A program made the position numbers and the translations under genes. A stretch of 51,015 nucleotides of DNA from Planctomycetota bacterium (GTDB lineage: Bacteria > Planctomycetota > SZUA-567 > H5-PLA8): positions 1 through 51,015 of the forward strand of contig JBBRPR010000059.1 of the NCBI GenBank assembly GCA_038227875.1. Reading direction: 5' to 3'. Positions 136 to 29,279 of this stretch are shown one piece after another; positions within the stretch are counted from its first letter, which is position 1, and every line of letters starts with the position of its first letter. The notes beneath the pieces were generated by a model that was given only the letters and a program-made list of their open reading frames with translations, did not search any database and was not told where the DNA came from.

Positions 136-576
136 CCCTCGAACCATACTCTTTTCAATCTTGTTTTCACTTCATCCGGCAGTCGCGCGAGAACGACATT
201 CACATCATCGTCGGAAACGAAGTAACGCTTGTGGTAGTACCGAAGTGGAATTATTGCGGCTGTGGTCATGTAGATTCCCCTTAAAATATCAAACGAGTGA
301 TCTCCGCAGCGACACGCTGCGAAATCAGAGGCATAAAAAGTTCTGTAAATGGCCACGTGTCTCAGCGTAAGGGGCTGAGCGCGGCAGTTAGGTAGTCGTG
401 CGGTTTAGGGCTAACTCAATCGCATGCCACAATAAACCCGGCGTAGACATCTCTTGTCAAGTATTTCAACTTCGTAGCACGCAACTCCACGAGCGTACCA
501 TCACGCTTGACGCGCCCTCGCGACTCTGTAACCTTCCGAACACGCCATAAAATCCAACAGGAATCGAGCTCACACA

Positions 577-20084: not shown

Positions 20085-21101
20085 TCACTGTACGACAATT
20101 TCCCACGCTGTATTGGTGATTCGTTCCACACCAATTTTGACGTCCAGAAACTTCTGGATGACTTCGCAATTCGTCAGCGTGTGCGGCGTGGGTTCGAGCG
20201 TGCGAAATGCGCCACCGCGCGCCATCGCCAGCGGCAACAGCAACTGATCGGCGAGATGCGTGCCGACCGGCGCGTCGGTGCGGAGGTACTCGCGCGCTTC
20301 CTTGGCCGCCTGATGTGCAACGGCTTCCGCGCTGACGCCACGCTCACCGAATCCCGTGAAGACTTCCGTGACGTGTTCGCTTTCGACGATAACCTGCGCG
20401 ATGTTGCCTGGCCCGATCGCCGTCGTGATCTCGTCGAGCAACCGCGCGCTCTTATCGAGTTCGAGCGCCGCGACCATCACTTCCAACTCGCGATGCGCGA
20501 TGTTGCGCGGCAGCGCGGAAATGCGCGCGACGGCTGTGGTCGCGCGATGCGCGCCACGTTCGCGCAGTTCCAGCGGCGAGAGTTTTTCGACGGGCGTGAT
20601 CGCGACGGTGACTTCGCCGCCACCGGCTGGATAGAAGCCCGGACGGACGAGCGTCGCATCCACGCGCGCGCCCATGCGGGCGAGCAGCGGCAGGAATGCT
20701 TTGGCGAGGAAATCAAACGGCGGCGCCGCCGGATTGTGCGTGCCGCCGCCCAAGGTCAGCGTCGACGGCGCACTGGCCGTGAGCAGCGTCGGCAGCACTG
20801 TCTGCAGCACGAGCATGGCGCTGCCGGCCGTGCCGACCGCAAACGCGTACGTCCCCGCGCGGCGCGTGGTCGGCTTGAACGTCAGTTCCATCGCACCGAG
20901 CGCCACGCCGGAGACATCAGCGCCGCCGATTTCCGCGGCCGCCTGAACGGCGGTGAGATGCTGCCGCAGCAGGCCAGGCTTCTTGCGGCCGGCGCGGATG
21001 TTCTTGATCGTGAACGGCTGGCCGGTCAGCACGGAAAGGCTGAGTGCCGAGCGGAGGATCTGGCCGCCGCCTTCGCCTGAGGATCCGTCTAGAGTTATCA
21101 T
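20085..21101 (-). CDS. rtcA: RNA 3'-terminal phosphate cyclase
   Basis: MITLDGSSGEGGGQILRSAL, IRAGRKKPGLLRQHL, GFYPAGGG, HLADQ, HTLTN. ATG 21101 has an AAGGA RBS; the track start at 21122 lies in a repeat. Confidence 0.97.
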   Translation of the reverse strand: MITLDGSSGEGGGQILRSALSLSVLTGQPFTIKNIRAGRKKPGLLRQHLTAVQAAAEIGGADVSGVALGAMELTFKPTTRRAGTYAFAVGTAGSAMLVLQTVLPTLLTASAPSTLTLGGGTHNPAAPPFDFLAKAFLPLLARMGARVDATLVRPGFYPAGGGEVTVAITPVEKLSPLELRERGAHRATTAVARISALPRNIAHRELEVMVAALELDKSARLLDEITTAIGPGNIAQVIVESEHVTEVFTGFGERGVSAEAVAHQAAKEAREYLRTDAPVGTHLADQLLLPLAMARGGAFRTLEPTPHTLTNCEVIQKFLDVKIGVERITNTAWEIVVQ

Positions 21102-21115
21102 TGGTTTCCTTAACG

Positions 21116-21170
21116 GAGTCATTGGTCATTGGGTATTGGTCATCGGTCATTTTTCATTTACGAGGAGCGG
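21116..21170. repeat. Left 55-bp inverted repeat built from GTCATTG-type heptamers
   Basis: 53/55 identical to the reverse complement of 21759-21813. Confidence 0.9.
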
Positions 21171-21817: not shown

Positions 21818-23320
21818 CTAATCATCCGCCTGCGAGCCATCCTTGATCACGAAGCGCGCATTGAGCTTCGCGACCGTGCGCGCCAATCCGGCCGCGGTGA
21901 CGCTGCGGAGGACTTCCGTGAAATCCTTGTACGCGGCGGGGGCTTCGTCGCGGGGGTATTCGCGGCAGTTGGTCAGGATGTCGTGGTCCACGAACTCCTG
22001 GTCGATCTTCTTCTGATCGAGCGCCCGCGTCGCGGCCTTGCGGCCCATCGCTCGTCCGGCGCCGTGGTTGACGCTAAAGCAGCTCTTTTCGGCGCCCGCT
22101 TCGGCCACCATCACCACGCTGCCGTCGCGCGGGTTTCCGGGAAGCAGAATCGGGTGGCCGGTCTTCTCGAAGACCGTGTCCTTCAGCGCGTGATGATGCG
22201 CCGGAAATGCGCGCGTCGCGCCTTTGCGGTGCACCCACGAAACGGTGTTCTTCACCACTTCCTCGCGCGCGATGTTGTGGCTGATGAAATAAACCAGGTG
22301 GCCCTTCACACCGGGAATGATTTCCTGGAACGCTTCCAGCACCAGCGCGTTGATCAGCAAATGATTGATCGTGGCGAAGTTCGCGCCCAGCGACATGTCG
22401 TCGATGTACGCGTCGGCTTCGGGCGTACCCAGCGGCGCGTAGACCAGTTCGCGGTCTTCACCCGGAAGCGGAATGTTCCACTGCGCGAACTTGTGCTGCA
22501 GCGCTCGGAACTGTCCCATCGCCAGGTTGTGACCAAAGCCGCGCGAACCGCAGTGCGACAGGAACGCCACGCGGCCGTCGAGCAGACCGAAGTTGTCGGC
22601 CGTGCCCGCGTTCTTTTCGCGGTCCTGGAGTTCCACGACTTCGCATTCGCCGAAGTGGTTTCCGCCACCGTACGAACCGAGCTGGCCAATCTTGTCGGCG
22701 AAGTTGGAGAACTCACGCTGCGTCAGCAGGTAGTCCAGACGGTTGGCCAGCGCGTCGTGCGTATGGTCATGACCGGTGTGCGCCGAATCTTCGCAGCGCT
22801 GCGCCCATTCGGGCGGAATGCCGACCGCGGCGCAAACCTCACGCGACGCACCTTCCACCACCGCGCGCTTTCCGAGCGCGGCGTCGATGTGGCGGGACTT
22901 CTTCACCGAACGCTGCCCCTTCCCTGCACCAGTCGGCAGACGGGAGACGATGGCGTTGATCAATTCGCGGCGGACTTCGCGGCCGAGAATCTGATCGGCC
23001 GGGAGGTCGAGCTGCAGGAGGCTCATCGAGCACTTGATGTCCACGCCCACTGGACCCGGATAGATGTGGGTTGGCGAAACCATGACACAGCCTACCGGCG
23101 CGCCGTAGCCGAGATGCGCGTCGGGGTTAAGGACGAGGTCGGTCACGCCCGGCGCCAGGCGCGAGTTGATCGCCTGCTGCAGGCAGCCGGCGTCGAAGCC
23201 GTTGCGGATGGATTCGGTGCCGATGACGGTGATCGGCTTGGTGACATCGTTGGTCACTGGGAGGAGCGCAGTGGCTTCGCCGGTGGGGATCAGAGCGGGC
23301 TTGTGTTCGGGAAGGTTCAT
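21818..23320 (-). CDS. rtcB: RtcB-family RNA ligase
   Basis: PDAHLGYGAPVG, VGVDIKC, GGGNHF, HCGSRG, SHN, HRKGAT, HGAGR, DEAPAAYKD. Confidence 0.95.
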   Translation of the reverse strand: MNLPEHKPALIPTGEATALLPVTNDVTKPITVIGTESIRNGFDAGCLQQAINSRLAPGVTDLVLNPDAHLGYGAPVGCVMVSPTHIYPGPVGVDIKCSMSLLQLDLPADQILGREVRRELINAIVSRLPTGAGKGQRSVKKSRHIDAALGKRAVVEGASREVCAAVGIPPEWAQRCEDSAHTGHDHTHDALANRLDYLLTQREFSNFADKIGQLGSYGGGNHFGECEVVELQDREKNAGTADNFGLLDGRVAFLSHCGSRGFGHNLAMGQFRALQHKFAQWNIPLPGEDRELVYAPLGTPEADAYIDDMSLGANFATINHLLINALVLEAFQEIIPGVKGHLVYFISHNIAREEVVKNTVSWVHRKGATRAFPAHHHALKDTVFEKTGHPILLPGNPRDGSVVMVAEAGAEKSCFSVNHGAGRAMGRKAATRALDQKKIDQEFVDHDILTNCREYPRDEAPAAYKDFTEVLRSVTAAGLARTVAKLNARFVIKDGSQADD

Positions 23321-23329
23321 GGTTTTTAA

Positions 23330-23608
23330 TCTCTCGCAAAGACGCTAAGACGCAAAGACGCAAAGAACGGTGGTTTTAGCTGGACTGGCTTCGGTCGGAC
23401 GCTTTCCTTGTTCATAGGCGAAATGTTACGGAATGTTACAAAATGTTACATCGAACGGGGGCGGTTTTGTAATCTCGCGCAAAGCCGCAAAGGCGCAAAG
23501 AACGGCTCGGATTGAGGCGGACGGAAATGGGGGCTGAGCGTTCTTGTTCATAGGCGAAATGTTACCGAATGTTACAAAATGTTACATCAAATGGGGCCTG
23601 TTTTGTAA
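23330..23608. repeat. Duplicated intergenic unit: CGCAAAG(A/G/C) octamer runs plus a 66-bp block containing (AATGTTAC)x3
   Basis: 66-bp blocks at 23407-23472 and 23543-23608 (offset 136). Octamer runs at about 23335-23370 and 23478-23505. Confidence 0.85.
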
Positions 23609-23781
23609 CCCGTGCCGACGAGTGATTGGCGGAACATCGCGCTCACCTTGAGCTTCGGCACGTTCGACAGGCTCAGTGCAAGCCCATACGACAGGCTCAG
23701 TGCAAGCCGTCTCAGCCGGCGGAATTCGAACCCGCGCCTCGTGGTTTTAAGCCATGTAGTTTCACCGGCATTCGACACGGG
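23609..23781 (-). ncRNA. Y8: YrlA-like Y RNA with an anticodon-like arm (UAA) and a repeat insert
   Basis: 5' CCCGUGUCGAAUGC pairs with 3' GUCGGCACGGG. T-arm GCGGG-UUCGAAU-UCCGC lies 5' of D-arm GCUC-AAGGU-GAGC (permuted order). Hairpin UGG-CUUAAAA-CCA. Confidence 0.8.
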
Positions 23782-23783
23782 GA

Positions 23784-24242
23784 TCATTTTTCGGTTTCCA
23801 ATTCGTGCAACTTTTCAAAGTAGGCTCTATTCCTTTGGTGTGTGTTGAAGTACATACCGTCGTCGACCAGGTAGGCGCGCAATGTTTTCTCACATTCCGT
23901 TTTTAAGTCTTCCATCACATTGATTAGAACGATGATCGCAGTAGCAAATTCTTCGTCCTCTGCATCCATTAATTTGTGCGCATCTTTCCAGACAATGGCG
24001 ATTTTGCGTTCGGAAAGATCCGCGATCCCATTGAAAAGGGAGTCTTTGATTGCTTCCCACCCACCGAAGACGATGGGCGGATTTAGCGGGAGGTGCTCTT
24101 TGATAACGCGCACAAAGTCCGCGTTAGACGCAATGGAATCCAGCCTGAAGACGCAAAACTCCTCCTTTACGAGCTGACGATGTAACGCGTCCAATCGTTC
24201 TTCGGGCAGATGGCACGCCCACGATCCTTCCTCGAGAGTCAT
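23784..24242 (-). CDS. Barstar-family (barnase inhibitor-like) protein
   Basis: FRLDSIASNADFVRVIKEHLPL...GGWEAIKDSL...IAIVWKDAHKL follows the barstar pattern (xWDALxDxL...IVW). Confidence 0.7.
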   Translation of the reverse strand: MTLEEGSWACHLPEERLDALHRQLVKEEFCVFRLDSIASNADFVRVIKEHLPLNPPIVFGGWEAIKDSLFNGIADLSERKIAIVWKDAHKLMDAEDEEFATAIIVLINVMEDLKTECEKTLRAYLVDDGMYFNTHQRNRAYFEKLHELETEK

Positions 24243-24622
24243 GCGGACAACTCCTCAATCATTTCAACACACGCTGGATCAAAATCCAGTCCTCGGTGCG
24301 TATGGCAATCGGAGCTTTCTGTACCCACTTCATGTCCATTCGCACACAGTGTGTTTCGTCCGCTGAATCCGGACGGGCCGCAACAGCCGAACAGTCTTTT
24401 GGGATCGGGATGATGTCTGGTGTTGATTGCGTCATCCAGATTAATTACCGCATGACCCGATTCAAATCCGATCGCTAACTTGTCCGCGATCGCAAAATGT
24501 CCGAGCGGAAGATAGTCACAACCGGTGTCTTCAAAGGCCAGCTTCGTGCGATCAACCAACTCCACAACCGGATTGGAGAGAGGAAGCTTGCAGATCGCGC
24601 AGCGGAAGATCATGTTTTCCAT
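24239..24622 (-). CDS. Cys-rich hypothetical protein, possibly a Zn-binding Yippee/Mis18-like fold
   Basis: FRCAICKLPL...GCCGPSG...NTLCANGHEVGTESSDC. ATG 24622 has an AAGGGAG RBS (alternative start 24640). Its stop overlaps the barstar ATG. Confidence 0.65.
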   Translation of the reverse strand: MENMIFRCAICKLPLSNPVVELVDRTKLAFEDTGCDYLPLGHFAIADKLAIGFESGHAVINLDDAINTRHHPDPKRLFGCCGPSGFSGRNTLCANGHEVGTESSDCHTHRGLDFDPACVEMIEELSA

Positions 24623-24645
24623 GTGGCAAGCTCCCTTCATTATAA

Positions 24646-24775
24646 TCAGACGCGACTATCGTTTGCGGAAAGAGCATGCTCTACCGCTGAGCTACGATCC
24701 CAGTGCGTTTCCGCCGCTGGAACCGACGGGAATTGAACCCGCGACACTGTACTTCCTCGCTGCATTCGCGCCTGA
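24646..24775 (-). ncRNA. Y7: YrlA-like Y RNA (permuted tRNA mimic)
   Basis: UCAGGCGCGAAUGC...UAGUCGCGUCUGA stem; T-arm GCGGG-UUCAAUU-CCCGU; closed acceptor CGGUUCC/GGGAUCG; D-arm UA-GCUC-AGCGGUA-GAGC. Confidence 0.85.
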
Positions 24776-24782
24776 CTGCATA

Positions 24783-24898
24783 TTCGGCGACTAAAAGTTG
24801 AGAAACGTTTCCGCTGTCCTGATTTGGACGACCGCTTGCGCGGCCGGGACTCTCACCCGGATCTGCGGCTTGATGTAGTTCCTCGGGCATTCGCCGAG
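24783..24898 (-). ncRNA. Y6: compact YrlA-like Y RNA
   Basis: CUCGGCGAAUGC...UAGUCGCCGAA stem; T-arm CCGGG-UGAGAGU-CCCGG; acceptor CCGC-GCAA-GCGG; D-arm GUCC-AAAUCA-GGAC. Confidence 0.82.
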
Positions 24899-25013
24899 CA
24901 CTTTTGTTCCTCATAAGACTTCGCACTTTGTTAGGATATCACGCCGGTATTCATCTGTAAAGCGGATTGTAGATTTATTCCTTGTATTTCGGTTGTTGCT
25001 TCCTTAAGTACGA

Positions 25014-25348
25014 GTGACGACAAAGGGTTGGTGAAATCTATACGCGCTCGCCATGAGCTACGGCCCCGTCTTTTGTGGCCTGTGGATTCGGGCGCTTTGG
25101 CCACAACCCTTTCAGGGTTGTCGCGCTGGCGCGGGCTCGTCGACCCAGGGCAGCGCTGCGGCGCAACCCTGGGCTTTGTAGCCGTTACCTCTTCGAGGTA
25201 AGTGAAGGCGGCGGCGCTTCGCGCTCATCCTTCACCTCAGTCCTCAGTCCTCAGTCCTCGGCCCTCAGTCCTTTCCGTTATGAAGCCGGCGGGAATCGAA
25301 CCCGCTCCTCGTTCTCCTAAAGAATGTAGTTCCACCGGCATTCGTCAC
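25014..25348 (-). ncRNA. Y5: YrlA-like Y RNA with an anticodon-like arm (UAG) and a 214-nt insert in the acceptor loop
   Basis: GUGACGAAUGC...UUGUCGUCAC stem; UUC-UUUAGGA-GAA hairpin; T-arm GCGGG-UUCGAUU-CCCGC; acceptor CGGCUUC/GGGGCCG; D-arm GCUC-AUGGC-GAGC. Confidence 0.78.
25068..25281. repeat. REP-like hairpin cluster plus (CCTCAGT)x5 inside Y5
   Basis: Hairpins ACAACCCT-TTC-AGGGTTGT (25103-25121), CCCAGGG...CCCTGGG (25144-25173) and TTACCTC-TTC-GAGGTAA (25185-25201); heptamers at 25235-25269. Confidence 0.75.
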
Positions 25349-25405: not shown

Positions 25406-25413
25406 GAACAGTA

Positions 25414-25507
25414 ATGGCGACAAAATTGGCGAGAGTCTGCCCCCGGTTTCCCGGGCTGGGATTCGAACCCACGGCGTGCCGATGTACTCCCCACACGCAT
25501 TCGCCAC
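25414..25507 (-). ncRNA. Y4: Y-RNA-like element with a T-arm and GAAA hairpin, no D-arm
   Basis: GUGGCGAAUGC...GGGGAGUACAU...UGGG-UUCGAAU-CCCA...CCGG-GAAA-CCGG...ACUCUC...UUGUCGCCAU. Confidence 0.78.
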
Positions 25508-25541
25508 GTCTGTTTCTCAACATTTTTGAACCCTGCAAAAT

Positions 25542-25634
25542 ATGGCGACTAAGTTTGGAGAGAGTTGCCGTCGGTTTCCCGATTTGGGGTTCGACCCCCA
25601 GGCGTCGATGTACTCCCTGACCAGCATTCGCCAC
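25542..25634 (-). ncRNA. Y3: Y-RNA-like element with a T-like arm and GAAA hairpin, no D-arm
   Basis: GUGGCGAAUGC...GGGAGUACAU...UGGGG-GUCGAA-CCCCA...UCGG-GAAA-CCGA...ACUCUC...UAGUCGCCAU; a paralog of Y4 with compensatory changes. Confidence 0.78.
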
Positions 25635-25665: not shown

Positions 25666-25732
25666 GCACGCCGACTAAGATTAATTTCGAGACGTCATTT
25701 TCAAGATGTAGTCCCGAAGGCATTCGGCGCAC
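25666..25732 (-). ncRNA. Y2: minimal Y-RNA-like element (Ro-type stem only, 67 nt)
   Basis: GUGCGCCGAAUGCCUUCGGGACUACAU...GUCUCGAA...UUAGUCGGCGUGC. Confidence 0.7.
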
Positions 25733-25748
25733 GTATTCCATTTTAAAA

Positions 25749-25817
25749 CCGTGCCGACTAAGACTTCTTGTGGAGACGCGACATGGGTTAATGTAGTCCC
25801 CGCTGCATTCGGCCCGG
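25749..25817 (-). ncRNA. Y1: minimal Y-RNA-like element (Ro-type stem only, 69 nt)
   Basis: CCGGGCCGAAUGCAGCGGGGACUACAU...GUCUCCAC...UUAGUCGGCACGG. Confidence 0.7.
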
Positions 25818-25903: not shown

Positions 25904-27460
25904 TCAGATCGTCGTCTTCTCAATCACATCCGCCCAGGTCTTGCCGTTGAGACGACCGGCAGCGAACTCGGCGATTACGTCGAAGACACGGTCCGAAAAA
26001 CCGCCGATGTTCAAGATGTCCGCACGCTCCTGCGCCTGGGTCGTGCCGTTGGGCTGGATGTCCAGACAGACCAGCTTCGCGTCCGGATTGCGGACTTTGA
26101 ACGCCATCCACTCCTTCATCGTGTTCGTGCGGCTGGCGCCCACGCTTGCGGAACGGGCGCTGTCCACCCACGACTCGTTGTCCGAAACGTAGATGATCAG
26201 ATCGCCGCGCGCCTTCTGATCGTTGAGCAGCATTAACGGCGCGCTGCAGTTCGTTCCGCCCGACGGGAGACTCGTGAGCTGCTTGGCGATGGTCATCACG
26301 CTGTCGCGCGGATTGACACGGAACGGGACGGCAGTGCATTCGAACGCCACAATTTCCGTCTCCTTGTTCTTGCGCACCATCGCCGCCGCCACGAGCGCCG
26401 CGACATCGATGCAGCGTACGGCAGTGGTCGCTCCGGCACGGTGGCCGGTGACCGGCGAATGCATCGAACCGGAAATGTCCGGGAAGACATAGACCTTTCC
26501 GTCGATGCGCGGCACGTTCTCGGTCGCGATTTCCATCGCGTCCTGGAGCGCTTCGCGTACGATGTGGGGCACTTCCTTGCCCGCGGCAGTGTAGGCCATC
26601 AGCAACTGGTACGGGAAGACACGGGCCTTCTTCACCAGTTCGGCGTCGCTGAGACGATCGGCGATCACGCGCGCCAGGTTTCCGCCGTTAAACACGCCAT
26701 GACGGGCGAACGTGTTCAGGTTCATGCGCGTCATCTGCCACGGCGCGTTGCGGGCGATCGAAATCCATTCGTCCTGACCCAGCGAGAGCGCGGTCAACAT
26801 CTGGAACGGCACGTCGGGAGCATCGCCCACCGGCTTGCGCTTGAAGGCTTCGAACTTCTGCACCAATTCCGGCAGCGCAGACGCGTCATGTTCGCGGCCG
26901 ATCAGGTACGCGTAGAGCGCGGCGCGGGACGGCGTCTTCGGCTTGGGATGGACCATCTTCACGATGTCGGCCAGCGACGGGTTCGCACCCACCGAGGCGC
27001 GGAAGACCTGGTCGTCTGAGCGCGCGTCGAGCCAGTTGCGGACCATGCGCTTGGGCGCGGTTCCCAGCGAGTTGCGGCCGACCGCGCCACTGCGGATCAT
27101 CTGGACAAAGTTCATCAGCATCTTGCCGTTGTCGATGACGCGGTCGAAAATCTCGCACATCAATCCGGGCGACTTGACCGAGAGGACGGCGCAGAGCAAC
27201 GCGGGCATGTCCTTCATGTAGCCCTTTTCGCGGCAGTAGAGCGCCAGGCGCGCGATGAATTCGGCGTCGACTTGAGCGGAAACCTCGAGGACGGTCTTGA
27301 GCTGATCGTCGGCGGTGGCGTAGAACGTGTGGTTCATGCAACCGGTGATCGCGTACTGCGCGAGCTTGTGCTTGGCGTTGAAGGCATACGCCTGGCCGCC
27401 GGCCTTGTTGAGCGCGTTGGTCTTCGGGAGCTTGGTGCTGAAGAGATTCTTGTTGGCCAT
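25904..27460 (-). CDS. rsr: Ro60/TROVE-domain RNA-binding protein (Rsr)
   Basis: NKAGGQAY...KLAQYAITG, MKDMPALL, RMNLNTFARHGVF; vWA MIDAS DISGSM, GGTNCSAPL, SDNESW, IGGFSD. ATG 27460 has an AAGGAGG RBS. Confidence 0.93.
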   Translation of the reverse strand: MANKNLFSTKLPKTNALNKAGGQAYAFNAKHKLAQYAITGCMNHTFYATADDQLKTVLEVSAQVDAEFIARLALYCREKGYMKDMPALLCAVLSVKSPGLMCEIFDRVIDNGKMLMNFVQMIRSGAVGRNSLGTAPKRMVRNWLDARSDDQVFRASVGANPSLADIVKMVHPKPKTPSRAALYAYLIGREHDASALPELVQKFEAFKRKPVGDAPDVPFQMLTALSLGQDEWISIARNAPWQMTRMNLNTFARHGVFNGGNLARVIADRLSDAELVKKARVFPYQLLMAYTAAGKEVPHIVREALQDAMEIATENVPRIDGKVYVFPDISGSMHSPVTGHRAGATTAVRCIDVAALVAAAMVRKNKETEIVAFECTAVPFRVNPRDSVMTIAKQLTSLPSGGTNCSAPLMLLNDQKARGDLIIYVSDNESWVDSARSASVGASRTNTMKEWMAFKVRNPDAKLVCLDIQPNGTTQAQERADILNIGGFSDRVFDVIAEFAAGRLNGKTWADVIEKTTI

Positions 27461-27514
27461 GATCGTTTGCCCTCCTTTTTTGTCGACTGCGTTCGTTTCG
27501 ATGAAAGTGATATG

Positions 27515-27529
27515 GCACCGCGCATGCCA
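27515..27529 (-). promoter_or_regulatory. Sigma54 -24/-12 promoter for the rsr-Y RNA-rtcB-rtcA operon
   Basis: TGGCATGCGCGGTGC fits GG-N10-GC, about 55 nt upstream of the rsr ATG and next to a sigma54 activator gene. Confidence 0.75.
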
Positions 27530-27556
27530 GCGTGAAAATTCTCGATAAGGAAGTCG

Positions 27557-27569
27557 TAAGTCATTTATT
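27557..27569 (-). promoter_or_regulatory. IHF-like site
   Basis: AATAAATGACTTA has one mismatch to WATCAANNNNTTR and lies between the promoter and rtcR. Confidence 0.4.
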
Positions 27570-27645
27570 AACTGCCTGTTGTAATTCATATGCGAAAAAC
27601 GTTGCCTGTGAAGTCATCCTCTATTACTATCCGTTGATCTATTAA

Positions 27646-27662: not shown

Positions 27663-29279
27663 ATGAAACGAAACGTTGTGCTGGGCCTTCTGGGCACCAC
27701 TTTGGACGCGGGATTTGGGCCGAATCGCTGGTCGCGCTGGCGGCCGTCGGTGGCGCTGTGTCAGCACGAGGACTTCCTGGTTCATCGCTTTGAATTGATG
27801 ATTCAGAAGCGGCATCTGAAGATGGCCAAGGCGCTGGTCGCGGATATTCATTCCGTCTCGCCGGAAACGGACGTGCGGCTGCATGAAGTTGAATTTTCCG
27901 ATCCGTGGGATTTTCAGGAGGTCTACGCGGCCCTTCACGATTTCGCGCGCGGGTACACCTTCAACACCGACGATCACGATTATCTCGTCCACATCACCAC
28001 CGGCACGCACGTGGCTCAGATTTGTCTGTTTCTGCTGACGGAGTCGCGCCATCTTCCGGCGAAGTTGCTCCAGACCTCACCGCCGCGCCGGAGCCAGCAG
28101 GGACCGCTGCAGGATCAGTCGGGGCATTACAGCGTCATCGACTTGGACCTGTCGAAGTACGACGGCATCGCGTCGCGTTTTCGCAAGGAACATCAGGAAG
28201 CGGTCTCGATGCTCAAGTCGGGCATTGAGACGCGGAACGCGCGGTTCAATCAACTCATCGAGCGGATCGAGCGGGTCGCAATCGTCTCGCGTGCGCCGGT
28301 GCTGTTGATGGGGCCGACGGGCGCGGGCAAATCGCAATTGGCGCGGCGCATTTTCGAACTGAAGAAAGCGCGGCGGCAGATCGACGGGCCGTTTGTGGAA
28401 GTGAACTGCGCGACGGTGCGCGGCGATGGCGCGATGTCGACGCTGTTTGGGCATAAGAAGGGCGCGTTCACCGGCGCGACGTCGGACCGGCCGGGGTTGC
28501 TCAAGGCGGCGAACAAGGGGATCTTGTTTCTCGATGAGATCGGCGAACTGGGGCTCGACGAACAGGCGATGCTGCTGCGTGCGCTGGAAGAGAAAGTATT
28601 TTTGCCGCTGGGCGCAGACACTGAGACGGGCAGCGACTTCATGCTGATCGCGGGAACCAATCGCGATCTGTCGAGCGCGGTGCAGACGGGGCGCTTCCGC
28701 GACGATCTGCTCGCGCGCATTAATTTGTGGACCTTTCACCTGCCGGGCCTGCGCGACCGGTTGGAGGACATCGAGCCCAACGTTCACTACGAGTTGGAGA
28801 AGATTTCGGCGTCGCTGGGCGCGCGGGTCACGTTCAACAAGGAGGCGCGCGAGGCGTTCTTGAGTTTCACGACGTCGCCGGACGCGACGTGGGCGGGGAA
28901 CTTTCGCGACTTGAACAGCGCCATCGAGCGCATGGCAACGCTGGCGTCGGGCGGGCGTATTTCAGTCGAGATCGTCGACGAAGAGCTCCAGCGATTGAGG
29001 CGGCAGTGGGCGCTTCCGACGGCTGCTGCGGCTGGAACTGGGGGTGAGCTCGTCGCGGAAATCCTCGGCGAGGACCGTGCCGCGGAGCTTGACCGTTTTG
29101 ACCGGGTCCAGCTCGCGGATGTCCTGCAGGTGTGCCGGAGCGCGCGCAGTCTCTCCGAGGCCGGGCGCATCCTGTTTGCGGAAACTCGCAAGAAGAAGCT
29201 GCTCGCTAACGACGCCGATCGGCTGCGCAAGTACCTCGCCCGATTCGGGCTGGAGTGGAACGGCGTCCGAAGTTCCTGA
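27663..29279 (+). CDS. rtcR: Sigma54-dependent RNA repair activator RtcR (CARF + AAA+)
   Basis: RWSRWRPSV, DPWDFQEVY, HITTGTHVAQIC, Walker A GPTGAGKS, GAFTGA, LFLDEIGELG, NDADRLRKYLARFGL. Confidence 0.96.
   Translation: MKRNVVLGLLGTTLDAGFGPNRWSRWRPSVALCQHEDFLVHRFELMIQKRHLKMAKALVADIHSVSPETDVRLHEVEFSDPWDFQEVYAALHDFARGYTFNTDDHDYLVHITTGTHVAQICLFLLTESRHLPAKLLQTSPPRRSQQGPLQDQSGHYSVIDLDLSKYDGIASRFRKEHQEAVSMLKSGIETRNARFNQLIERIERVAIVSRAPVLLMGPTGAGKSQLARRIFELKKARRQIDGPFVEVNCATVRGDGAMSTLFGHKKGAFTGATSDRPGLLKAANKGILFLDEIGELGLDEQAMLLRALEEKVFLPLGADTETGSDFMLIAGTNRDLSSAVQTGRFRDDLLARINLWTFHLPGLRDRLEDIEPNVHYELEKISASLGARVTFNKEAREAFLSFTTSPDATWAGNFRDLNSAIERMATLASGGRISVEIVDEELQRLRRQWALPTAAAAGTGGELVAEILGEDRAAELDRFDRVQLADVLQVCRSARSLSEAGRILFAETRKKKLLANDADRLRKYLARFGLEWNGVRSS

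Follow-up and report, generated by a model that had tools for sequence, protein, structure and literature searches.

YrlA, a described class of Y RNA (Rfam RF02553), contains a tRNA-like domain, and the crystal structure of this domain from Salmonella Typhimurium is available (PDB 6cu1; Wang et al. 2018, bioRxiv 312249). In that report, YrlA is seen as having no anticodon loop, the regions AS, AC and VL are said to vary in size, and partners that bind the elbow are expected. Chen et al. (2014, RNA 20:1715; PMC4201824) named a stem-loop V and equate the V region with the variable arm of tRNA. Salmonella YrlA is not cut by an anticodon nuclease according to Hughes et al. (2020, PMC7790460), where a role as competitive inhibitor is suggested; the same paper describes RtcR as responding to tRNA halves with cyclic-phosphate ends. 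Here we analyse two RNA units, Y5 and Y8, encoded in a 51,015-nt stretch of a Planctomycetota genome (GenBank assembly GCA_038227875.1, contig JBBRPR010000059.1, positions 1 to 51,015; hereafter the window). Both are probably YrlA-type RNAs of an rtcR/rsr-Y RNA-rtcB-rtcA locus, in which the optional fourth stem-loop V is present as an anticodon-arm-like element. They are divergent new members of the described YrlA class, and for the window alone the result is a modest one.

The V stem-loop itself is already published; that it obeys the rules of tRNA anticodon loops appears to be unreported. No anticodon-like reading of V was found in the searchable YrlA and Y RNA literature, which misses several reviews and the figures of Chen et al. 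2014. The initial annotation of the window had set Y5 and Y8 apart from typical YrlA. The arm is not special to them, and as an element it is already routine in YrlA alignments: five of the seven sequences in the 2014 seed alignment (PMC4201824, Supplementary text 1) contain the hairpin, which the SS_cons line of that alignment leaves unannotated. These five come from R. etli, mycobacteriophage ET08, Streptosporangium, Gordonia and M. smegmatis; the M. smegmatis element, for instance, reads CCA-CUUCUAA-UGG-AA-UGGUC, that of phage ET08 CUC-AUUGAAA-GAG-AG-AGGUC and that of Streptosporangium CGC-CUUCUAA-GCG-GG-UGGUC. In our reading, the nucleotides equivalent to tRNA positions 27-28 and 42-43 are paired in all five (CC:GG, AG:CU, GG:CC, GC:GU and AA:UU).

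Structure of Y5 and Y8

The elements of the two units are located as follows.

25014-25348, minus strand: Y5, whole YrlA-type unit, which starts GUGACGAAUGCCGGUGGAA; Ro-stem strands GUGACGA 25348-25342 and UCGUCAC 25020-25014
25329-25325, minus strand: Y5 linker CUACA, directly 5' of the hairpin
25312-25324, minus strand: Y5 anticodon-like hairpin UUC-UUUAGGA-GAA (UUC 25324-25322, loop 25321-25315, GAA 25314-25312)
25310-25311, minus strand: Y5 CG (tRNA 42-43), which can pair with CG 25044-25043 (tRNA 27-28)
25289-25309, minus strand: Y5 variable loop AGGA 25309-25306 and T arm GCGGG-UUCGAUU-CCCGC 25305-25289
25061-25288, minus strand: Y5 7-bp acceptor-like stem, CGGCUUC 25288-25282 with GGGGCCG 25067-25061, closed by a 214-nt insertion
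25043-25058, minus strand: Y5 D arm GCUC-AUGGC-GAGC 25058-25046, N26 G 25045 and CG 25044-25043
23610-23780, minus strand: Y8, whole YrlA-type unit; 5' CCGUGUCGA pairs with 3' UCGGCACGG
23759-23755, minus strand: Y8 linker CUACA, directly 5' of the hairpin
23742-23754, minus strand: Y8 anticodon-like hairpin UGG-CUUAAAA-CCA (UGG 23754-23752, loop 23751-23745, CCA 23744-23742)
23740-23741, minus strand: Y8 CG (tRNA 42-43), which can pair with CG 23639-23638 (tRNA 27-28)
23719-23739, minus strand: Y8 variable loop AGGC 23739-23736 and T arm GCGGG-UUCGAAU-UCCGC 23735-23719
23638-23653, minus strand: Y8 D arm GCUC-AAGGU-GAGC 23653-23641, N26 G 23640 and CG 23639-23638

The order of elements is the same in both units: a canonical T arm, a closed acceptor-like stem and a D arm with a GCUC/GAGC stem. 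The GNCGAAN0-1G motif reads GACGAAUG in Y5 (25346-25339) and GUCGAAUG in Y8; in both units it lies near the 5' end, inside the stem formed by the RNA ends. UA separates the acceptor-like stem from the D arm in Y5, and AA stands directly 5' of the D arm in Y8. The acceptor-like stem of Y8 consists of four contiguous base pairs and an extended imperfect stem.

The sequence places both hairpins at the minus-strand positions that the initial annotation had given. Its span for the pair, 23719-25348, covers Y5 (25348-25014) and leaves Y8 incomplete, as that unit runs to about 23610. Between Y5 and Y8, two of the three hairpin pairs are changed on both sides. Together with the two pairs that follow the D stem and N26, the 13-nt hairpin would form a 2+3 bp helix in the place of the anticodon stem. 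The Ro60-binding stem is predicted to enter this helix between tRNA positions 28 and 29, with (C)UACA and (A)ACG as its linkers to the junction. The annotation had proposed this topology, and it is supported by the covarying pairs 27-28:42-43, with which the 3-bp hairpin is directly continuous.

Searches with existing models did not recover the two units. Neither Y5 nor Y8 matched RF02553 in Rfam even at E<=10, so both lie below its gathering threshold of 69 bits; at the gathering thresholds and at E<=10, Rfam gave just partial tmRNA or mascRNA-like matches to the T arm. ARAGORN predicted no tRNA at Y5 or Y8. With a covariance model built from hairpin-bearing homologs (R1), Y8 scores 71.3 bits (23626-23774) and Y5 53.3 bits (25208-25344).

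The acceptor-loop insertions of the two units differ. The 214-nt insertion of Y5 (25068-25281, minus strand) is structured and contains about four GGACUGAG repeats, and the fold of the whole of Y5 has a z-score of -3.0. By analogy with the published case of M. smegmatis YrlA, it is possible that the acceptor stem of Y5 is opened by RNase P. The insertion of Y8 (23658-23705, minus strand) contains a 24-nt tandem duplication, each copy of which forms a small GGCU...AGCC hairpin.

The hairpin among homologous units

Homologs were collected with the pattern CGAATGC...CTAC...T loop. It matched 5 of 20 genomes of the window's order and 16 of 401 sampled genomes of the phylum; the latter gave 23 places, three of which (L016, L017 and L029) were set aside by eye as not YrlA-like. 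The 20 YrlA-like places comprise 10 with a hairpin at the site (six with a 7-nt and four with a 6-nt loop), eight with none and two with other hairpins. A wider scan of genome contigs, which allowed 15-29 nt from CTACA to the T loop, gave at least 121 stretches, and counts that draw on it below are counts among the matches listed. The titles of these matches name Acidobacteriota, Planctomycetota, Verrucomicrobiota, Alpha-, Beta- and Gammaproteobacteria and Myxococcota. All loci combined amount to 186 distinct matches; removal of 26 without a D arm and two that were too short left 158 parsed units. Viral contigs were scanned separately with an actinophage-type 5' motif, which gave 42 stretches with 24 distinct inserts.

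The length of the insert between CUACA and positions 42-43 peaks at 12, 13 and 14 nt (41, 30 and 28 of the 158 parsed units). These lengths correspond to a single 13-nt hairpin, which either uses the last A of CUACA or follows one spacer nucleotide. Spacer nucleotides are seen on the 5' side alone, the linker from the hairpin to 42-43 being zero by construction of the count. Among the 121 units whose insert measures 10 nt or more, 79 have three base pairs that close a 7-nt loop and end at position 41; slid registers yield 0-8 such units, and shuffled 13-mers 6 on average (maximum 14). In the viral contigs, 23 of the 24 distinct inserts have this form.

The flanking pairs give a similar picture. 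Both pairs 27-28:42-43 form in 104 of the 121 units, a count that falls to 99 when a 5-nt variable loop is required. When the 27-28 dinucleotides were dealt among the units, the mean was 50.8 and the maximum 66; slides by one position gave 14 and 31. The types found include CC:GG, CG:CG, GG:CC, UG:CA, GC:GC and GU:AC. In a MAFFT alignment (A1) of 17 units, which were chosen on spacer length and hairpin closure and not on these pairs, pairing is 100% at both and either side varies; the two pairs also form in all 21 viral units with a D arm. Below N26 there are 2 bp (27-28:42-43) and 3 bp (29-31:39-41), both of which covary; the 5' strand is interrupted between them, and the two parts are presumed to stack into a stem of 5 bp.

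The sequence of the loop was compared between the 71 distinct hairpin loops and the 79 predicted tRNAs of the window's genome.

Position 32, pyrimidine (Y32): 68 of 71 hairpin loops; 75 of 79 predicted tRNAs
Position 33, U (U33): 66 of 71 hairpin loops; 74 of 79 predicted tRNAs
Position 37, purine (R37): 63 of 71 hairpin loops; 78 of 79 predicted tRNAs
Position 38, A (A38): 49 of 71 hairpin loops (C in 19); 56 of 79 predicted tRNAs

The Y5 loop UUUAGGA and the Y8 loop CUUAAAA both have 7 nt with Y32, U33 and R37. The annotation had noted this combination in the two units, and it is kept far beyond the window's genome. The Leu-type identity that it had also assigned is not conserved: positions 34-36 hold 29 different triplets in the 71 distinct loops, and Leu-type triplets are rare. 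Positions 36 and 37 are not independent. G37 occurs in nine hairpins, six times after G36 and three times after A36, and in no case after U36 (40 loops) or C36 (12 loops); in the predicted tRNAs of the window's genome, G37 follows G36 in 11 of 13. Viral loops behave in the same manner, with five of six G37 after G36 and G37 in all five loops that have G36; they carry U33 in 22 of 23, R37 in 22 of 23 and A38 in 20 of 23. Constraint at positions 32, 33, 37 and 38, freedom at 34-36 and the dependence between 36 and 37 argue for selection on anticodon-loop architecture and against chance, neutral decay of a tRNA arm and mimicry of one tRNA.

Two other explanations of the loops were tried and rejected. 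Y5 and Y8 are not copies of the genome's own tRNAs, as neither 13-mer is present in any of its predicted tRNAs. Pairing of the loop with the acceptor region of the same unit was also discarded, the complement of positions 33-37 being found in 0 of 79 units (shuffled mean 0.7).

At one locus, L011 of genome G019 (about 225-323, minus strand), the 5' strand of a YrlA-like unit has no hairpin, and an additional one, CCGGC-AUC-GCCGG, follows positions 27-29 on the 3' strand. This genome is unpublished, and publication of the observation needs the depositors' permission; no main claim rests on L011.

Alternative readings and proposed role

If the hairpins were chance pairings in two paralogous spacers, stems of just 3 bp that folding does not predict would be no surprise. 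The same register, loop length and flanking pairs are seen again in several phyla and in phages, at counts well beyond those of the shuffled and slid controls, and these counts already contradict such an origin, which has next to no chance of being correct. The name V carries a different explanation, namely that the hairpin is a poorly conserved equivalent of the variable arm, a purely structural brace or spacer where the tRNA-like domain meets the Ro stem, without any function akin to that of an anticodon arm. Chen et al. 2014 (PMC4201824) give it the variable-arm label, and the variable sizes of AS, AC and VL described by Wang et al. 2018 (bioRxiv 312249) would agree. The arm is also optional, 6- and 8-nt loops exist, and some units (G042c, G218a) have a different hairpin directly beside the T arm. 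However, the hairpin is not in the position of a class II variable arm, which comes after 43-45 and abuts the T stem, because it lies 5' of the paired, covarying 42-43 and a separate variable loop of 4-5 nt comes after these. Constraint falls on loop length and on positions 32, 33, 37 and 38, and 34-36 are free; class II variable arms usually have loops of 3-5 nt that do not follow anticodon-loop rules. From these comparisons the anticodon-arm reading of the hairpin appears better supported than the variable-arm label, and we regard the latter explanation as rather unlikely.

The hairpin could also be a relic, either the anticodon arm left over from the first tRNA of a dimeric-tRNA ancestor or the result of gene conversion from tRNAs, with no present function. 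The dimeric-tRNA model places the first anticodon arm exactly 5' of the variable loop and T arm (bioRxiv 312249). The Y8 loop is identical to that of the genome's two predicted tRNA-Leu(UAA) genes, and the Y5 loop differs at one position from that of its tRNA-Leu(UAG). In both cases, however, the stems are unlike those of the Leu tRNAs, neither complete 13-mer recurs in the predicted tRNAs, and the stems covary. Neutral decay would lead to drift at all seven loop positions, yet only 34-36 drift, and the presence of A34 in 19 of the 71 loops, when it is nearly absent from tRNA genes (1 of 79), argues against repeated copying. A functionless relic is thus improbable. The annotation itself had suggested mimicry, in which Y5 and Y8 imitate tRNA-Leu(UAG) and tRNA-Leu(UAA), either as decoys for anticodon nucleases that target tRNA-Leu or as sensors of them, or are RtcB substrates that feed RtcR. 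The triplets of both loops are of the Leu type, and the purine that follows each (G37 with UAG, A37 with UAA) is the one found in the genome's Leu tRNAs; three relatives (G394a, G200 and G154) have UAA, CAA or UUA loops. Rsr and rtcB flank the genes, which stand under rtcR, and RtcR responds to cyclic-phosphate tRNA halves (PMC7790460). Against this, the triplets are free among homologs, paralogs in other loci carry unrelated triplets, and the 5' fragment of a cut Y RNA would probably not resemble a 5' tRNA half. The Salmonella YrlA that was left uncut by anticodon nuclease (PMC7790460) points the same way, although it has no hairpin. We consider mimicry of the Leu tRNAs very improbable.

The anticodon-arm reading has a number of observations against it. 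The form with 3 bp and 7 nt is missing from 42 of the 121 units, with 6-nt loops in 10, 8-nt loops in four and no 3-bp closure in 26; some of the units without closure have, by eye, a mismatched outer pair or are mis-parsed. In the window's own phylum, 6-nt loops make up four of the 10 hairpins. About half of the YrlA-like units, including Y6 and Y7 of the window and the crystallised Salmonella YrlA, have no such arm, which is therefore not needed for the core function. C37 is present in eight of the 71 loops, and the frequency of A34 noted above is far higher than in tRNAs. The variable loops of Y5 and Y8 have 4 nt and their D loops just 5 nt; the initial description of the two RNAs as complete tRNA mimics is supported in its topology and, since the D loops are so short, overstated in the word complete. 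Partition-function folding of 71 homologous units gave the hairpin in 14 minimum-energy folds, with a median pair probability of 0.065. It is absent from single-sequence folds of Y5 and Y8, and the case therefore rests on comparison with other sequences. For that comparison, CGAATGC, CTACA and the T loop were invariant in the pattern of the wider scan, and the units share ancestry, so that the counts exceed the number of independent events. The covariance-model alignment (A2; best 150 matches from 100 sources), in which the hairpin is 93.2% and the 27-28:42-43 helix 94.4% paired, was fitted to the model and leans to its structure.

If the hairpin is an anticodon-like arm, it would be expected to stack coaxially on the 2-bp helix, because it meets this helix without a linker and the Ro stem joins through linkers. 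The result would be a 5-bp anticodon-like stem with a U-turn loop, and hairpin-bearing YrlAs would present a nearly whole tRNA shape tethered to Ro60. With lower confidence, we suggest that the arm may owe its retention to binding by a protein that reads anticodon loops. Candidate binders are a position-37 modification enzyme, an anticodon nuclease and the RtcB repair machinery, for which the arm would serve as a competitor or docking site, not as a mimic of one particular tRNA.

More tentatively, V may be a true anticodon stem-loop mimic under the constraints of tRNA loops, with hairpin-bearing YrlAs that would resemble a complete tRNA, tethered to Ro60, would be modified like tRNAs and would engage anticodon nucleases or RtcB as a decoy or docking site. 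Although we think this possible, we would not presume it. It would cover the YrlAs of mycobacteria, rhizobia, phages and this locus, and the rule that links positions 36 and 37 would reflect position-37 modification enzymes. If true, it would provide the first concrete handle on what YrlA does. Candidate partners would shift from the elbow-binding ones expected so far (bioRxiv 312249) to position-37 modifiers, anticodon nucleases and RtcB, and partners that read anticodon loops would fit the neighbourhood of rtcR, rsr, rtcB and rtcA. Direct experiments would be possible in M. smegmatis and R. etli, species already in use.

Gene neighbourhood and known systems

The array of eight Y-RNA-like units has the following neighbours and hairpin-free members.

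25904-27589, minus strand: rsr, Ro60 ortholog, 5' of the Y RNA array (vWA_Ro60 8.3e-22, TROVE 5.7e-08)
27663-29279, plus strand: rtcR, divergent from rsr (RtcR 1e-83, Sigma54_activat 4.6e-50)
21818-23320, minus strand: rtcB, 3' of Y8 (RtcB 1.7e-99)
20085-21122, minus strand: rtcA, beyond rtcB (RTC 1.1e-78)
24646-24897, minus strand: Y6 (24897-24781) and Y7 (24772-24646), YrlA-type units without the hairpin

The order on the minus strand is rsr, the array, rtcB and rtcA. Y5 begins about 0.56 kb and Y8 about 2.1 kb downstream of rsr, on the same strand and within the 4-kb criterion for YrlA. A search for sigma-54 promoters gave four pattern matches at one mismatch, which is not above chance, and none could be assigned to rsr.

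In Y6 and Y7 the anticodon-like stem leads straight into the Ro stem, in agreement with the initial annotation. With RF02553, Y7 scores 50.1 bits and Y6 49.5 bits (gathering score 69); Y4 and Y3 score about 23 bits each, also below the threshold. Y3 and Y4 (25411-25634, minus strand) have a T arm and no D arm. The matches without a recognisable D arm (26 of the 186, for example at L045, L063, L069, L114 and L143) likewise have a T arm and make up a second class of Ro-associated units, and many of these units show CUACA-U(C)GGUAA-CCC-UUCG-GGG directly abutting it. Y1 and Y2 (25684-25816, minus strand) are minimal units with a Ro-type stem, CCGAAUGC ... UAGUCGG, and CUACA, and have neither T nor D arm.

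Between Y7 and Y8 (23784-24640, minus strand), a two-gene cassette lies inside the array. The first open reading frame (ORF) is rich in Cys and His, encodes 133 aa (127 aa in the database entry) and overlaps the second by ATGA; the second encodes a Barstar-like protein of 152 aa (Pfam 27.0 bits). The 133-aa ORF has no family match in Pfam or NCBIfam and just six relatives, and its Atlas clusters are unnamed. Its AlphaFold model (pLDDT 75) shows a weak Foldseek likeness to Yippee/Mis18/cereblon-CULT folds (best E 4.6e-3). One possibility is that the two form an effector-immunity pair inside an RNA-repair operon.

A unit of about 136 nt is present twice between Y8 and rtcB (23335-23608), with a 66-nt core that is 92% identical between the copies. 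Each copy has three GTAACATT-like words 10 nt apart on the minus strand and a CGCAAAG-rich stretch. In the region 17445-20078 of contig C25 of genome G000, a cluster of three unusual predicted tRNA-Leu genes (75-83 nt; CAG, GAG and UAA) adjoins weak YrlA-like matches at C25:19956-20065 and C25:17445-17583.

The closest described relatives of Y5 and Y8 are YrlA RNAs of RF02553 that carry V. They share the GNCGAAN0-1G motif, the T arm, the closed acceptor-like stem and the D arm, a location on the same strand as rsr and within 4 kb of it, and the fourth stem-loop just 5' of the T arm. Unlike these, Y5 and Y8 score below every Rfam threshold and have long acceptor-loop insertions (214 nt in Y5), 4-nt variable loops and 5-nt D loops. 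The stem-loop that Chen et al. 2014 call V and take as the variable arm is here read as the lower part of the anticodon arm. With the anticodon stem-loop of tRNA, the hairpin and its flanking pairs share a 7-nt loop, Y32, U33, R37 and A38, and G37 mostly after G36, and their 2 and 3 bp below N26 would, if stacked, match its 5-bp helix. They differ in that the 5' strand is broken between 28 and 29 by the Ro stem, only three base pairs are contiguous and A34 is common.

The YrlA domain of S. Typhimurium (6cu1) has in common with Y5 and Y8 an L-shaped tRNA-like core and the conserved UA of CUACA at the junction; it has no hairpin, and its AC stem kinks into the Ro module. D. radiodurans Yrn1 is also a Ro-bound Y RNA for which an anticodon-arm-like stem-loop has been proposed (Chen et al. 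2014, PMC4201824). In contrast to the 2+3 bp arrangement, the stem of Yrn1 has 5 contiguous bp with a loop of 6 nt, is situated between the T and D elements and belongs to another permutation; its anticodon-like arm is considered to be of independent origin. Circularly permuted tRNA genes (Soma et al. 2007, as cited in bioRxiv 312249) share with Y5 and Y8 an acceptor stem closed by a loop and RNA ends in the anticodon-stem region. The permuted genes give rise to true tRNAs, whereas the ends of Y5 and Y8 form a predicted Ro60-binding stem instead.

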